Below are positions 66 to 59,829 of a DNA stretch of 64,000 nucleotides, piece by piece; within the stretch, counting starts at the first letter, position 1, and every line of letters begins with the position of its first letter. A program made the position numbers and the translations under genes. The notes below the pieces were generated by a model. It saw nothing but the letters and a program-made list of their open reading frames with translations. It did no database searches and was not told where the DNA came from. Source of the DNA: Eledone cirrhosa (Eukaryota); the NCBI GenBank assembly GCA_964016885.1, contig OZ024740.1, positions 198,834,001 through 198,898,000 of the forward strand, written 5' to 3'.

Positions 66-1243
66 ACGTGGGAAAGTGAAAAATCGGAGAATAGACCGTT
101 AAAACATGTTTATTTAAAATATCACCTACGTACGTTTCGCCCAGTTGGGCTTCTCAAGGGCATAAATAATCACAAGTGTTCCTTATATAGTTCGGAAAGA
201 GTTTTGGGGGTTAAATCCACATCAAGATTCATTGCTCGCAAAAATATCTTGTTTTGATTTTGCAGCAGGTCAAGGGAGGTAACTCTGGCCGGTGTTAGGG
301 CAGTCTTTCCCGGATAATTTTTTTTTTTTTTTTTTTTTTCCTGTTTGTCTGAGCCTGGGTCTGGTATGCAAGGATTGTTTTCTGGGTGTTATTTTGCTGC
401 GCCTGCCCGCCGGGGTGTTAAGACTTGTTGCAGGGAGATCCAGTGTACTATTTCACTCTTCATTCTTAACCCATCTAAAGAAGGATATTTTTAAGCGATG
501 TGTACAACTTATCGCTGTTTCAGCTCTGCTGTTGATGAGCTCGTGGGGTGCAGTTATGATGTGGTAGAGCTCCATGAGGCAAATATCGCATTTCCTCTTG
601 AAGTTGTACGGTGCAGCCCTGCCGACAATCTCCCAGTGCGTGGAGAAGCTAATGTTTAAGTCCTTCTCCACGCATTGGGAGATTGTCGGCAGGGCTGCAC
701 CGTACAACTTCAAGAGGAAATGCGATCTTTGCCTCATGGAGCTCTACCACATCATAACTGCACCACACGAGCTCATCAACAGCAGAGCTGAAACAGCGAT
801 AAGTTGTACACATCGCTTAAAAATATCCTTCTTTAGATGGGTTAAGAATGAAGAGTGAAATAGTACACTGGATCTCCCTGCAACAAGTCTTAACACCCCG
901 GCGGGCAGGCGCAGCAAAATAACACCCAGAAAACAATCCTTGCATACCAGACCCAGCCTCAGACAAACGGGAAAAAAAAAAAAAAAAAAAATGATCCGGG
1001 AAAGACTGCCCTAACACCGGCCAGAGTTACCTCCCTTGACCTGCTGCAAAATCAAAACAAGATATTTTTGCGAGCAATGAATCTTGATGTGGATTTAACC
1101 CCCAAAACTCTTTCCGAACTATATAAGGAACACTTGTGATTATTTATGCCCTTGAGAAGCCCAACTGGGCGAAACGTACGTAGGTGATATTTTAAATAAA
1201 CATGTTTTAACGGTCTATTCTCCGATTTTTCACTTTCCCACGT
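66..1243. repeat. Near-perfect foldback (about 580 bp arms, 14 nt spacer at 649-662) built from the 3' end of a Penelope-like element; right arm continues as an unpaired tail to about 1405
   Basis: 66-648 is the reverse complement of 663-1243. Mirror ORFs 574..858(+) and 453..737(-) encode WEIVGRAAPYNFKRKCDLCLMELYHII...LINSRAETAISCTH, the C-terminal part of a PLE GIY-YIG domain. Confidence 0.9.
1147..1188 (+). ncRNA. Candidate minimal hammerhead ribozyme, U3:A8 variant (mirror copy about 120-161 on -, third copy about 54208-54250 on -)
   Basis: TTGAGAA-GCCCA-ac-TGGGC-GAAA-CGTACG-TA; palindromic stem III; helix I is weak; lies sense and downstream of the PLE ORF. Confidence 0.6.
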
Positions 1244-1621
1244 GCTTACGCTCTGCTAACTCTCTAGCCCACTAAATATTAACACTTCGAATATTTAATA
1301 CTGCCGGCAATAGTATCGAGCACATTTGGCATACGCTACTTGGCAAATAACTATATGTATCACCTATCCCTCCTTTTTCTCTCTTTCTCGATACGTAAAT
1401 ACTACATATATATATATATATATATATATATATAGGATTATCCTGGATGCAGTAATGGTTAATTACAACACGGGATAAAGTTGACGTACGGTGAGAAGTT
1501 ACTCAACGAGTTATGGAAGAATAGTTGAAGAAACTCAGTTCCTGATCCTTCTGTATTCCGGAGTGCAGATAAAGAATGAATAATAACAGGTAGACATCAT
1601 AAAAAGGTAATTTATTCTGTG

Positions 1622-1733
1622 TGCTTACAAATGTTTCCACGGTGGTTATACAGCCTAGTTATGCTATGTGCAAATTTATAACTATTTGGAAAACTCAATT
1701 ATCAAATGCTGTGACCACTGTATCATCAGGGCA
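1622..1733 (-). ncRNA. Candidate hammerhead ribozyme with a stem II of about 85 nt
   Basis: Reverse complement reads tgcc-CTGATGA-TACAGTGGT cacagc...gctgta ta ACCACCGTG-GAAA-CATTTG-TA|agca. Confidence 0.65.
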
Positions 1734-1821
1734 GAATGGTTAAAATGTAAAATGTAAATGCCCTTAAGTGAGGTTATTGGGCAAGATAGAGTAGAAAAGG
1801 AAGGAAGAGAGAAAAGAAGGG

Positions 1822-1915
1822 GAGAGAGAGAGAGAGAGAGAGAGAGAGAGAGAGAGAGAGAGAGAGAGAGAGAGAGAGAGAGAGAGAGAGAGAGAGAGAG
1901 AGAGAGAGAGAGAGA
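1822..1915. repeat. (GA)n microsatellite in the PLE 3' UTR
   Basis: Direct reading. Confidence 0.95.
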
Positions 1916-55858: not shown

Positions 55859-58800
55859 TATATATATATATATTTAGATATATATACATATTTATATATG
55901 TATATATATATATATATATATATATATATATATATATATATATATATATATATATGTGAAAAAATGGGGAGAAGAATACTGCAGGTTGCACATGGATAAC
56001 ATGTAATAAAATAAGTCCCTCATCAGTGATTTGCCAACGATCATAGATATTTCATTGCATTAAAAATCATATACCTCACGTCGGTGCAATAATAACTAAA
56101 TTAAGTTATTAGAACAATTATAACGCGTAAAGCGAGTGAGACAAGATAACAACAAAGAGGAGAGCTAACCGTAGAAGGAAGGGAACAAGCTTCATAGTTA
56201 TTCTGTTAGCGTAAGCTAGGTGAATATATTTAGATATATATGCATATATATATATATATATATATATATATATATATATATATATATATATATATATATA
56301 TATATATATATATATAGTGACGAAACATAAATCAATTGCATGAACTCATAATCCTTTATTTACTGCTAATATATACCATTGAATGGGTATGACCTCATCA
56401 GGCAGTTAGTCAGTTCTTAGATATGCCAGCTCTGTGTTTTTGGTGTTGATGGAATCAGAGCCTTGGGACATATTATATATATATATATACATATCAACAT
56501 ATACATATGTACGTATGGGTTATATAGAACATTAACATACTTATATTGAACATTAGCATACTTATATATATATATATATATATATATACATATATATATA
56601 TATATGGGTGTGTGTGTATATATATATCCACACAAGCCCCCCCCCCCCACCCCCCACGCACACACACACACATATATATATAGAGAGAGAGATACCCATC
56701 ATCTCAGAAATCAAAACGAACACTGTATTCTTTGTTGAAGATCACACACAAAGATAATGGAGTCCGGCCTGTATGTTCTATGGTTGACCCTGAGCCAATC
56801 CTCTGCGAAATTCGGGTAACAGGTTGATACACAATAAAAATTAAATACATGTAAACGAATCATCATTGTTTTTATTAATATATATATATACTTGGTGTTT
56901 GTATTTATCTTGAAAGGCGCATAGCTTACAGCTCACGAACCAAGTTGGTGTAGGACAGAAAAAAAGGAGAGACACAAGATAACAAATTACTTACTGAGTA
57001 TGTATGACAAAATAGTTTTGACGTAAATAAATGAATAACTATCCGGTTATTAAACTAACCGACTGGGAGTTTATGATAAATTGAAGGGAAACCAACATGT
57101 TCTAGTGTTTTTATCGGCTTTATGACCCTCCCAAAGAATAACCATATATGTGTGGGGTGAGTAGGGTGAATGAAGATCGGAATATCTTCGTAGTTACAGA
57201 CAAACCATGGAGGCGTACGGCCTACTAATATCGTTATTGGATTATAATGTAGGTTACGTTCTTGGATTGGGTTGTGTGTTGTGTCATTGAGCAAAAAACT
57301 CCATTTCCCATTGCTCTAATATACACAACTAAACATGAATACCAGCAATGGTTTGAGGTTTAACCCTGTGTTGGTCTAGCGTCAGGGGTAAGTCTTGTAT
57401 TCTCACTCGCTTAACGTTACGGACATTCGGATAAGCACCTGTCTCCTGAGCTTCTGTGCTAGAGACAGACTTTAGATTTACTGAGAAACCAGTCAAATTT
57501 GACTCAGAGTATAACGCAGTGTCTTAAAAAAGAAATTAGACATTAAATAAGCTAGCCATATATAATAAGTGTCTAAGGACCCCGGGATAACCGGGGTGGA
57601 ATAACATTATACATATATCATAAAAATTAGTGCTGAGTTTCTTTTTAGTCATTCAAATCAACCCCAGTACTTATTCATTCTATTCCTTATTATATCGAAA
57701 CCTTTTATTGTATACGTAAATTATCCTTTGACAAATTTGATGTACAAATTGATAGAGTGTTAGATAGAATGTCTTACGTCCTGATTTCAAATCTCATGGT
57801 GTTCGATATTTCTATTGCATTCTTCCAGAGAGTATACAATAAGACATCGAGTATCGATGTTCTCATAATTCACTGCTCCAAATATAAACATACGCAGTAG
57901 GTTAAATCACGCATTGACAGTTACTTGGTATCATTATTCATAAATAAAAAAAGAACCCTTTTTCGGTATGTGGATAAATATCTAAGCTGGGTTTATATAT
58001 TGCTTATTATTCAACCCATTGCCATGACTGCTGAAGGTATCACCATGCGTTGCACCTGATAAGAATGCTTTCAATAGACTATAATTCGCTAAAGTCATTC
58101 AAAGTTCAGATGATGTTAAACATGGTGACGTATAATATGTAATCGCCAAATATCTCGTAACAATTGGAACGATTATTGTAAAATATCTAAATTATCCTTC
58201 TAGTAACCTGGAGGTTAATTTATGTTCCATCATCCCATTTCTTATTCCATGGAACTTTTTAGAGTTAGAGGAGTGTCACCATGGCATACATTTAAACCTG
58301 GTGGAGACCACACCATTTAAGGTCAGACTCCAACTGATTTCGTCTAAAAACAAAGACAAGTAAGAGGTCGTTAAAAAGAGATATACCGAAATAACCGGCC
58401 CTTGTAACAGACTCGTACTTTATTGAACTCAAAAAGAGAAAAGACTAATGTCGCAACGTCGGAATTTGAACTCCATGAGAAGTCTAATCCCAAAACACAA
58501 AACATTCGACATGCCAATGACGCAGCATATTTGCCGACTTTTACGTTATCGACTCCCAAAATATGAAAGGTAATGTTGACCTCGGTGGAATCTGAATTTG
58601 ATGAAAACCCTTTTCTTATTACAACTACATCCATGTAAATAGACACATTACAAATTAGACACAATACATATTAAAAGAATCCGATGCCATTTTCAATGAC
58701 GTGCGTTATCTTATACAATCTAAATAATCTGCATGCTTTATATTTGCATTAGTCGTCATATCCTGAAGCTATATTGCAAAACATTTAATATATTGAACAA

Positions 58801-59599
58801 TCCGATATTGTGATTGCCCTCTCCCCTATATAGTTCAAACTGTGAATAGCATCATTTATAAATAAGAATATTAAAACAAGACAAGATTTTCGTCGTTAGC
58901 TGATCGCAGTGGGGCGTTGTGTTTCCCCTATTCACTAATCTCTTGTTCAGTTAACTTCAAATCATTGATGTAATAACGAATTAACGCAAGGATTGCGCAT
59001 ATTGGTAATATCAGTGAGGATGCTTATGGCGATGATAAAATCTGTCATAATGCTGATGAAGCTGATGATGACATTCCTCGTCATTGACTTATTCTCCTCC
59101 ACTTATTCAACAAAACACCTAGTCCTCCTCCTCCCACTCATGGTTATCAATATAATGACATAATCATGTATAGCGAAAATTGTATACATATAGAAAATCG
59201 TGGACACATACCTATATAATAAGTACAATACAACATAGCAATTTATGCTATAACATATCTTCCCACACTCAAGAGGAGAACCAGCGACCGAGATTACGAC
59301 ACCCGCCAAATGAACAGGATAATAGTTTATAGAAAGATAAACTTCTGTTTAATTCGGATACATATTTTGTGTTCGGACAAATGCAACTTAACATAATGAC
59401 TATATATATATATATAATATATATATATATATGTATATATATATAGGAAAAGTGCCAGGACCCCGACGACTGAGCTCTGGCCGTTTCGACTGCTAGATCC
59501 GATCTAAACCAGTAGTATTAGGACCAGTAGTAGGGAGCTAGCTGAACTTATCGAGGTGTACAGTCCATATATGGGCATGCAATCAATATATAGACTGTA

Positions 59600-59679
59600 C
59601 TCCTTGATAAGTTCAGCTAGGTCCCTTCCGTCCTAATACTACTGGTTTAGTTCGGATCTAGCAGTCTAAACGACCGGAG
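59600..59679 (+). ncRNA. Candidate U3:A8 hammerhead with long stem II in the longest family-C foldback
   Basis: CTCC-TTGATAA-g..GCTAG...CTAGC.gtc-TAAA (GAAA in the mirror arm)-cgacc|GGAG; atypical cleavage triplet. Confidence 0.45.
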
Positions 59680-59829
59680 CTCAGCCCTCGGGGTCCTGAT
59701 TCTTTTCCTATTACACACTCTACTACCCTAATTATCGAGTATTCTGGTGCGGTATTGTCCACCTGGTTCCTTACCACACTTTCTTTGTTATATATTTATA
59801 TGCTTTGTTATTCTTTTACTCTATGACTT

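Follow-up and report, generated by a model that had tools for sequence, protein, structure and literature searches.

Tailed inverted repeats with hammerhead motifs at (TA)n tracts of Eledone cirrhosa: truncated Penelope-like elements and putative retrozymes

Introduction

A stretch of 64,000 nt from Eledone cirrhosa (assembly GCA_964016885.1, contig OZ024740.1, positions 198,834,001 to 198,898,000 of the forward strand; hereafter the window) contains ten inverted repeats, labelled E1 to E10 from left to right, that share one outline: a (TA)n tract, a tail, an outward-reading hammerhead-like motif, a body and the mirror image of that body. The locus raises two questions: what kinds of element these are, and how two opposed arms come to lie at one target. 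A first-pass annotation had related the outline to Penelope-like elements (PLEs), which encode a reverse transcriptase (RT) and a GIY-YIG endonuclease (EN), and had proposed a large class of non-autonomous, retrozyme-like elements. How inverted and tailed PLE insertions form is stated to be open in PMC8557442 and PMC11167929, and the enzyme that moves animal retrozymes is stated to be open in PMC7229834 and bioRxiv 10.64898/2026.07.22.740005.

The layout is real and is mostly known PLE anatomy. Eight of the ten structures are, as judged from sequence, 5′-truncated head-to-head insertions of autonomous RT/GIY-YIG PLEs (Hydra-, Neptune- and Nematis/Neptune-like), and the remaining two (23633-24836 and 38533-40914) are putative retrozymes, i.e., non-coding hammerhead tandem units. 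At odds of about three in four, all ten are head-to-head 5′-truncated pairs at (TA)n, eight from coding PLEs and two non-coding, that likely arose each in one event, by a PLE RT/GIY-YIG enzyme priming twice at one nicked target. What is new is that retrozymes bear the integration signature of PLEs; to this are added an end-pairing rule based on counts, tails of unusual length, core variants that are fixed in their families, and a very large number of motifs.

Results

Ten tailed inverted repeats end at (TA)n

Self-comparison of the window (blastn) recovered all ten inverted repeats, with arm identities of 76-98% over the aligned spans. The arms are imperfect mirrors. Typically one short and one long 3′ end are found per pair, and an unpaired tail of 41-164 nt extends up to the (TA)n on one side of each window insertion. 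The repeats reported in the first-pass annotation therefore exist, but their spans needed correction because they represented the paired part only and omitted the tail (Table 1). Eighteen of the 20 corrected ends lie no more than 6 nt from (TA)4 or longer, as against 7% of window positions, in agreement with the adjoining (TA)n noted earlier. The repeats had also been described as unrelated in sequence. This does not hold for one pair, 5859 (E3) and 17621 (E5), which are 83% identical over 69 nt and whose proteins are 50-68% identical in the main matches.

Table 1. The ten inverted repeats of the window, with corrected spans, predicted assignments, hammerhead motifs, tails and other positions
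Element	Span	Arms or strand	Predicted assignment	Hammerhead motif	Tail	Other positions
E1	66..1406	both arms	head-to-head 5′-truncated pair of an autonomous Hydra-type PLE, unit 3326 nt	+1152-1182 and -157-127	164 nt	EN C-terminal 65-70 aa, 661-855 and 665-456
E2	1435..3546	minus	5′-truncated Hydra-type PLE	1729-1626, 85-nt stem II	134 nt, 1568-1435	RT thumb and EN, 3406-2326 (minus); inverted arm 3404-3546, 143 nt
E3	5859..6450	both arms	foldback, 3′ end of an autonomous Nematis/Neptune-like PLE, unit 4138 nt	+6190-6223	about 41-45 nt
E4	8312..8655	both arms	foldback, 3′ end of an autonomous Hydra-type PLE	+8500-8540 (hammerhead-like)	86 nt
E5	17621..21568	both arms	Nematis/Neptune-like PLE foldback	-17797-17763 and +21333-21367	59 nt	RT C-terminal half and EN in both arms, 19387-18028 (minus) and 19920-21102 (plus)
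E6	23633..24836	both arms	non-coding retrozyme-like unit of about 535 nt; inverted arm and partial tandem	+24579-24650 (mutated)	100 nt
E7	34453..36230	both arms	foldback, 3′ UTR of an autonomous Neptune-like PLE, unit about 4.8 kb	+36036-36066 (hammerhead-like)	41 nt
E8	36358..37393	both arms	foldback, 3′ end of an autonomous Hydra-type PLE	+37328-37357	85 nt	EN remnant 36888-37049
E9	38533..40914	both arms	foldback of a non-coding retrozyme-like unit of about 1.3 kb	-38735-38672, 45-nt stem II	about 80 nt	SINE fragment 40758-40871
E10	59443..59790	both arms	foldback, 3′ end of an autonomous Hydra-type PLE	-59554-59465, long stem II	79 nt	further window copies 3593-3793, 16908-17150 and 51564-51747

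Eight structures derive from coding PLEs

One arm of each of eight elements was used to search the 3.0-Gb genome, and the 30 best-listed loci of each were examined; E2 and E5 were left out because RT/EN coding sequence already lies inside the window. These searches score only the 40 best candidates. The numbers of first-look candidates, to be read as minima rather than as counts of copies, are at least 2569 for E1, 920 for E3, 2328 for E4, 3764 for E6, 850 for E7, 2990 for E8, 2272 for E9 and 8361 for E10. Copies of E1, E3, E4, E7, E8 and E10 run into RT and/or EN sequence. Thus these six, with the coding elements E2 and E5, make up the eight that are assigned to 5′-truncated autonomous PLEs.

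Within the window, six of the ten structures show no PLE-coding match and four have one. However, the arms of four of the six (5859, 8312, 34453 and 59443) are 3′ untranslated regions (UTRs) of autonomous PLEs, which reach RT and/or EN in longer copies. Most of the listed non-coding arms are therefore simply the 3′ UTRs of autonomous elements, the exceptions being E6 and E9, and this is the outcome that the first-pass annotation had named as counting against its proposal.

In E1 the left arm has the short 3′ end and the right arm carries the tail. Locus L031 displays an inverted arm followed by a pseudo-long terminal repeat (pLTR), RT, EN and a second pLTR, with a 3326-nt period. The translated protein has the RWK, DKT and CxCx5C motifs, which are Hydra marks as defined in PMC8557442. 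Its protein atlas neighbours score 0.95-0.98, with HTH_animal in 28-84% of members or RVT_1 in 16-20%. The E1 hammerheads show a U3:A8 pair and a palindromic stem III. A fixed 742-nt E1 element was considered and ruled out, as copies extend further upstream. The inverted arrangement is found in 7 of the 30 E1 loci, and most copies are single-armed.

The other Hydra-type families (E2, E4, E8 and E10) resemble E1: E2, E4 and E10 are placed by 32-55% identity to the E1 protein, and E1, E8 and E10 share YxDD and homologous protein blocks. The inverted arm of E2 begins within stem II. For E4, the tblastn coding matches seen are to the EN part; EN is situated 1.1-1.6 kb upstream in five of the 30 rows, which share that stretch, and two more have a closer EN match. 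All three long loci of the E8 family contain RT and EN, with RWR and DKT present. The E10 3′ UTR is about 930 nt, its family hammerhead has U3:A8, and 21 of 25 loci fetched with an EN end continue into the E10 3′ end. PLE coding in E2, E4 and E5 is supported by tblastn matches to proteins of the E1/E3/E7/E8/E10-type families.

The E3 family has a 4138-nt tandem unit with RT and EN at locus L255, and its protein gives a weak Pfam RVT_1 match, below the cut-off. The E3 hammerhead has an extra nt after A9, and the tail lies within the first codons of the open reading frame (ORF). A long asparagine-rich stretch is present upstream of the RT (L255:2552-4234) and resembles the N-rich inserts described in rotifer Penelope elements. 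In E5 an apparent 800-nt unit was an artefact in the three loci inspected.

The E7 family has a 784-aa frame with Pfam matches to RVT_1 (E=2e-7) and GIY-YIG (E=1.5e-6), and with the Neptune-like combination of DKG and CX4CxxC; a PDB sequence search with this protein was without a match. The frame opens at the identical place in all three long copies (L258, L256 and L260). At L258:3064-6713 a 455-aa upstream ORF overlaps the 784-aa RT-EN frame, an arrangement in which a programmed frameshift is possible. Partial-tandem pLTR arrangements are found at L031 (E1), L255 (E3) and L258 (E7).

Two more truncated Hydra-type coding regions are present in the window, at 24860-26856, just beyond the right end of E6, and at 51873-52918. 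Second copies of the E1 and E5 families, at 53951-54534 and 62957-64000, show internal deletions or a small palindrome.

Pairing of short with long ends

In each family studied, two 3′ ends recur at fixed positions beyond the hammerhead motif on its downstream side, with a spacing of 41-166 nt. In 65 distinct foldbacks of seven families, counted where both arms lie within the locus and a junction is found within 35 nt, 62 pair a short with a long end, two are long-long and one is short-short. Junction gaps are mostly -10 to +20 nt, so that usually only a few bases are shared or added where the arms meet.

Long inverted arms and TA flanks are also what would be expected of TA-targeting miniature inverted-repeat transposable elements (MITEs) or foldback DNA transposons, of two independent insertions in one (TA)n, or of assembly artefacts. 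Independent insertions would pair their ends at random, with about 50% short plus long; 62 of 65 therefore argues against them. The symmetric terminal inverted repeats with fixed ends of a MITE or foldback transposon were not found; instead the two ends of an insertion differ, there is no set arm length, and single-armed copies are in the majority, as in the E1 loci. The arms moreover abut at the junction while differing by 2-24%, and in the genome sample described below an inverted partner is located upstream of 27 of 59 motifs and downstream of one. Explanations of this group deserve almost no credence.

A more serious alternative is snap-back, or self-priming, whereby a single cDNA folds back and is copied and EN trims one end, to leave an inverted arm and a tail. 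Self-priming was proposed in PMC3846280 and tail resolution by EN in PMC8557442, and the process also predicts one short and one long end and abutting junctions. The lengths of the arms speak otherwise. Among the 62 short plus long pairs the short-end arm reaches further 5′ in 29, the long-end arm in 28, and the two are equal in five; the short-end arm sometimes extends beyond the tail-bearing arm by >600 nt. A copy of the first cDNA cannot contain sequence that is absent from that cDNA, so snap-back would need a later deletion of one arm in about half of the cases, and it is considered unlikely. The near-constant pairing of ends, together with the free order of the arms, is therefore consistent with RNA having been primed twice, separately, at a single target that was nicked on both strands.

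Non-coding hammerhead units

In the E6 family a direct period of 519-576 nt is seen in 12 of 28 rows, copies cease to share sequence after roughly one unit, and no ORF in the monomer reaches 60 aa. The family hammerhead displays U3:A8, a 5-bp stem I and a 9-bp stem III, and its UUGAAAA core is found in 22 of 25 matched copies.

E9 consists of two subfamilies with units of about 1330 and 1297 nt, and copies that reach upstream meet the previous hammerhead at that distance. The rarely kept 5′ part used as query gave at least 666 candidates, and the 30 rows fetched from among them, from 27 places, all belong to the 1.3-kb unit, three of them ending early. No PLE coding inside the unit and no homology to an autonomous PLE pLTR were detected among these 30 best rows, and the longest frame of the reference unit is 97 aa. 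An alignment of 37 of the 53 collected motifs, all 78 nt long, reveals two compensatory pairs in stem II between the subfamilies (G-C/A-U in 7 rows, G-U/C-G in 8), with a covariation score reached by none of 500 shuffles.

A third non-coding hammerhead family, with a 592-nt unit and a 166-nt tail, was found outside the window in the genome sample (L311:478-2430). It is very young, with 99-100% identity among the best copies, and forms arrays of up to about 5 units per arm that are themselves foldbacks, e.g., at C3:223985968-223991883; further sites are C10:31400185-31402310 and C13:16636828-16638817. Across the three non-coding families, two scoring hammerheads one unit apart are found at L358, L378, L380, L384/L385 and L311. 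The E6 and 592-nt monomers fold far better than shuffled sequences (z -6.8 and -5.9), and five autonomous 3′ ends give z of +1.6 to -3.0. E6, E9 and the 592-nt family all show a non-coding tandem with a type I hammerhead per unit, the pattern by which retrozymes are recognized.

The rule of one short and one long end is obeyed by E6 in 7 of 8 places and by the 592-nt family in 5 clear places. Retrozymes thus carry the PLE end signature, which gives direct genomic support for PLE mobilisation of retrozymes. As read from these ends, the non-coding units likely borrow a PLE enzyme.

The proposal of a non-autonomous retrozyme-like class is then correct in that such families exist (E6, E9 and the 592-nt family) but fails for the non-coding foldbacks as a group. 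Its strong form, in which all of these foldbacks belong to one large class, draws on the two units among the ten, the third elsewhere, and weaker signs of further units of about 460 and 475 nt (tandem spacings of 462 nt and 473-478 nt). In addition, about 16-18 of the 59 sampled motifs belong to clusters in which short tandems or a link to E6 point to a short non-coding unit. Eight of the ten structures are nevertheless ends of coding PLEs, and for the listed ten the strong form is already refuted. When extra non-coding families were sought by a permutation test, a coding control family scored in 5 of 21 cases that look like false positives (three inspected); the extra short-unit families are therefore leads only, and the strong form is very improbable.

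The right-arm hammerhead of E9 is broken and followed by a fragment of a tRNA-like short interspersed element (SINE). The SINE also occurs at window positions 10896-11074, 41595-41665 and 49009-49096, with 50 matches in the 400-kb sample, and has what we take to be look-alikes of the A and B boxes. In 9 of 30 rows it lies at the (TTA)n that directly follows the E9 cut site on its 3′ side. Its 5′ truncations differ and it is present in both E9 subfamilies, which suggests repeated targeted insertion of the SINE at the E9 3′ flank.

Hammerhead motifs in the window and the families

At the family level, all ten have a type I hammerhead-like core reading outward, at a distance of 22-227 nt when measured from the short end and about 100-276 nt when measured from the long one. 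The earlier description of an outward motif near the outer end is thus accurate for every family, two of them with core changes. The cores are canonical or U3:A8 in E1, E2, E3, E5, E8 and E10. The E4 family has U4A (CAGAAGA, 25 of 25 matched copies), and the E7 family, which has U3:A8, has A13C (GCAA, 28 of 28). Both changes are fixed in young, recently spread families. In the window, the right arm of 1435-3546 and the left arm of 5859 start inside the motif, and the motif is mutated in both arms at 23633, 34453 and 59443 and in one arm at 36358 and 38533. Lunse et al. reportedly described dimeric PLE hammerheads.

A relaxed descriptor, which admits U3:A8, an extra base after A9 and a long stem II, gave 11 window matches at score 11+ compared with a mean of 0.85 (maximum 3) in 20 dinucleotide shuffles. 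The motifs therefore exceed shuffled controls, although the descriptor was tuned on these same motifs and the window count is post hoc. At this score it misses the motifs of E2, E3, E4, E6, E7, E8 and E10; strict descriptors found 1 and 4 window motifs. No Rfam hammerhead covariance model is among the 150 matches listed, of 252, in one scan, nor in two further scans listed completely; these scans returned microsatellite-driven miRNA and similar spurious matches.

Five further window motifs lie outside the ten structures, at 16248-16302, 6599-6550, 17366-17298, 38006-38080 and 55482-55512. The first is the 3′ end of another young Hydra-type PLE, and the last belongs to a family with a 462-nt tandem in L176.

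Density of motifs in the genome

Forty stretches of 10 kb (400 kb), at round-number positions chosen on large contigs, were scanned as a sample independent of descriptor tuning. They contain 59 motifs at score 11+, as compared with 6.6 in shuffles, and 24 of the 40 stretches have at least one. Extrapolation to 3.0 Gb gives about 390,000 hammerhead-like motifs (bootstrap 230,000-570,000), and a genome content of a few hundred thousand is likely. The highest literature count found is 120,000, for axolotl. A (TA)4 lies within 250 nt downstream of the predicted cut in 50 of the 59 motifs, against 20% of control positions, so that the suggested enrichment of (TA)n at the flanks is evident in this sample as well; the PLE-type anatomy and (TA)n targeting put forward in the first-pass annotation are both supported.

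The 59 motifs fall into 27 clusters, the largest of which (10 motifs) was assigned to neither class. Eight motifs are in the proven coding E5 and E11 clusters. A few sampled motifs are chance matches, one of them in a satellite. An AT-rich satellite at L318, with a period of about 280-550 nt, shows many weak false hammerhead matches.

Other features of the window

A non-LTR retrotransposon remnant with endonuclease and RVT_1 domains is located at 29658-32364. At 6760-7085 is an imperfect inverted repeat with a tRNA-like looking interior; no hammerhead was seen in it, and ARAGORN found no tRNA.

Discussion

A possible course of events is as follows. The PLE enzyme, possibly as a dimer, would nick both strands of a (TA)n tract; one 3′-OH would prime at the short start site on the RNA and the other 3′-OH at the long start site. 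Synthesis of both cDNAs would end prematurely, and a central junction would then unite them. In the case of the 535-nt, 1.3-kb and 592-nt non-coding units, the hammerhead may cleave tandem transcripts to give monomers, perhaps circular, which would serve the PLE enzyme as templates in trans; reverse transcription that continues round a circular template or through a multimeric one could yield the multi-unit arms. In an in vitro assay, a PLE protein nicked both target strands and extended them, started at two internal sites that define the tail, and was modelled as a dimer (PMC11167929).

Several observations weigh against this reading. The Hydra-type proteins gave no match of any kind in Pfam scans, and the names Hydra, Neptune and Nematis are provisional in that they rest on motifs and not on a tree. 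The G10.1-C11.1 pair is highly conserved according to PMC4209133, but U.U takes its place in E4, E6, E8 and E9, and A.G, like U.U, replaces it in several families. Core bases are changed in E4 and E7. Monomer folds of nine motif windows, one of which ended before the end of the motif, are no better than shuffles (z -1.65 to +1.5). The E9 covariation represents two related subfamilies and about two events, one modelled pair fails in 28 of 37 rows, and E9 folding is not unusual (z -0.5 and -3.0 for the halves). The three non-coding units show no informative similarity to autonomous families in a blastn comparison of 1.5 Mb of the 3.0 Gb, and a diverged coding parent of E6 could escape a search that scores the 40 best candidates. 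Cleavage, transcripts and circular RNA of the non-coding units are predicted; a look-up with mostly flanking sequence, which took in about the last 330 nt of the E9 end and so little of the unit, listed no RNA record. In vitro, hammerhead mutants were still inserted and start sites were alike on both strands (PMC11167929), and for this reason the step of one start site per strand, and any role of cleavage, are inferences. Eight of nine tested retrozymes showed no cleavage (bioRxiv 10.64898/2026.07.22.740005).

Some of these points would also suit non-coding units that move with PLE enzymes while their hammerheads are non-cutting passengers, the tandem arms being derived from multimeric linear transcripts. 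The non-canonical 10.1-11.1 pairs, the dispensable hammerhead in vitro and the inactivity of most tested retrozymes are in accord with it. However, a complete core and stems are kept in all three non-coding families, E6 retains its 9-bp stem III and its largely identical core, and the E9 stem II covaries. Passenger hammerheads are thought doubtful, though they are the alternative to be taken most seriously. At its fullest, the two-priming reading holds that of about 400,000 motifs a third or more are in retrozymes copied from circular RNA by a PLE RT dimer onto both strands of a nicked (TA)n, with a different start site per subunit, giving multi-unit palindromes several kb long. This extended form is less likely to be right than wrong; if true, it would tie animal retrozymes to the PLE machinery through a countable genomic signature.

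For the origin of the inverted and tailed insertions this genome offers a countable rule, a short end paired with a long one and independent arm lengths, and non-coding hammerhead units that obey it address the question of the retrozyme enzyme without sequence homology. Young, near-identical families (E1, E7 and the 592-nt family at 99%) with near-intact ORFs make an in vitro test of cross-mobilisation practical. At about one motif per 8 kb, hammerheads would be a major component of the genome, and annotation would place many of these repeats wrongly among MITEs or miRNA hairpins.

Comparison with known systems

The layout, the U3:A8 core and opposite-strand hammerhead pairs of truncated PLEs are already in print (PMC4209133, PMC8557442), and Craig 2021 (PMC8557442) and Arkhipova 2013 described insertion at (TA)n, an inverted copy and a tail carried by one of the arms. 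The cephalopod literature, in the portions available, records active PLEs and 235 Rfam hammerheads in squid and does not describe this layout. Retrozymes with the PLE foldback and tail signature have no report in the literature searched, and subscription papers, Repbase/Dfam and supplements may hold cases.

The non-autonomous Chlamys elements, e.g., MRC1 (PMC8557442), are likewise non-coding, with pLTRs and head-to-tail multicopy insertions ascribed to PLE. They are mostly without hammerheads and have 3′ sequence in common with autonomous partners, whereas no such sharing was found here. Xenopus retrozymes have homology to an autonomous pLTR; none was found here in the 1.5 Mb compared. Animal non-LTR retrozymes (Cervera and De la Pena 2020, PMC7229834; Li, Clavereau and Pollet, bioRxiv 10.64898/2026.07.22.740005) resemble the present units as non-coding tandems with one type I hammerhead each, a GC content of 33-42%, dispersed monomers to multimers, high self-pairing (E6 and the 592-nt family) and a proposed mobilisation by PLEs. 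The PLE signature of two fixed 3′ ends, (TA)n and head-to-head arms is not described in the available text of either source, and the 1.3-kb unit exceeds the 972-bp maximum of the preprint.

The PLE minimal hammerheads of Cervera and De la Pena 2014 (PMC4209133) are also of type I, with U3-A8 covariant, an extra nucleotide after A9 and a palindromic stem III, and truncated PLEs there give rise to opposite-strand pairs at distances of 100-700 bp. In the present families a stem II of 30-100 nt is common and U.U or A.G stands for G10.1-C11.1. U4A and A13C are fixed in two families, unlike those hammerheads, although the supplementary figures of that paper may show such variants. The estimate of about 390,000 motifs is above the 2,000-9,000 per genome of that study.

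With Hydra-clade EN+ PLEs (Craig et al. 2021, PMC8557442) are shared the C-terminal EN, the pLTR hammerhead, partial tandems, the inverted 5′-truncated copy, the tail at one end, (TA)n insertion, and RWK/DKT/CxCx5C, all three of which are present in E1. The Hydra-type tails described here are 79-164 nt as compared with 30-40 bp, the 3′ UTRs reach about 1.1 kb, and one family has a fixed U4A core. With Neptune/Nematis PLEs (PMC8557442), E3 and E7 share the CX4CxxC linker and GIY-YIG; the upstream ORF of E7 that overlaps the RT-EN frame differs from these and from Poseidon PAc (Frangieh et al. 2024, PMC11167929). The strict pairing of short and long ends with free arm order (62 of 65) contrasts with the lack of a strand difference in PMC11167929. 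Poseidon PAc nevertheless shares two 3′ ends 41-59 nt apart and AT-rich targets, and in E3 and E5, as in Neptune/Nematis PLEs (PMC8557442) and Poseidon PAc, the two 3′ ends lie at the start of the ORF.

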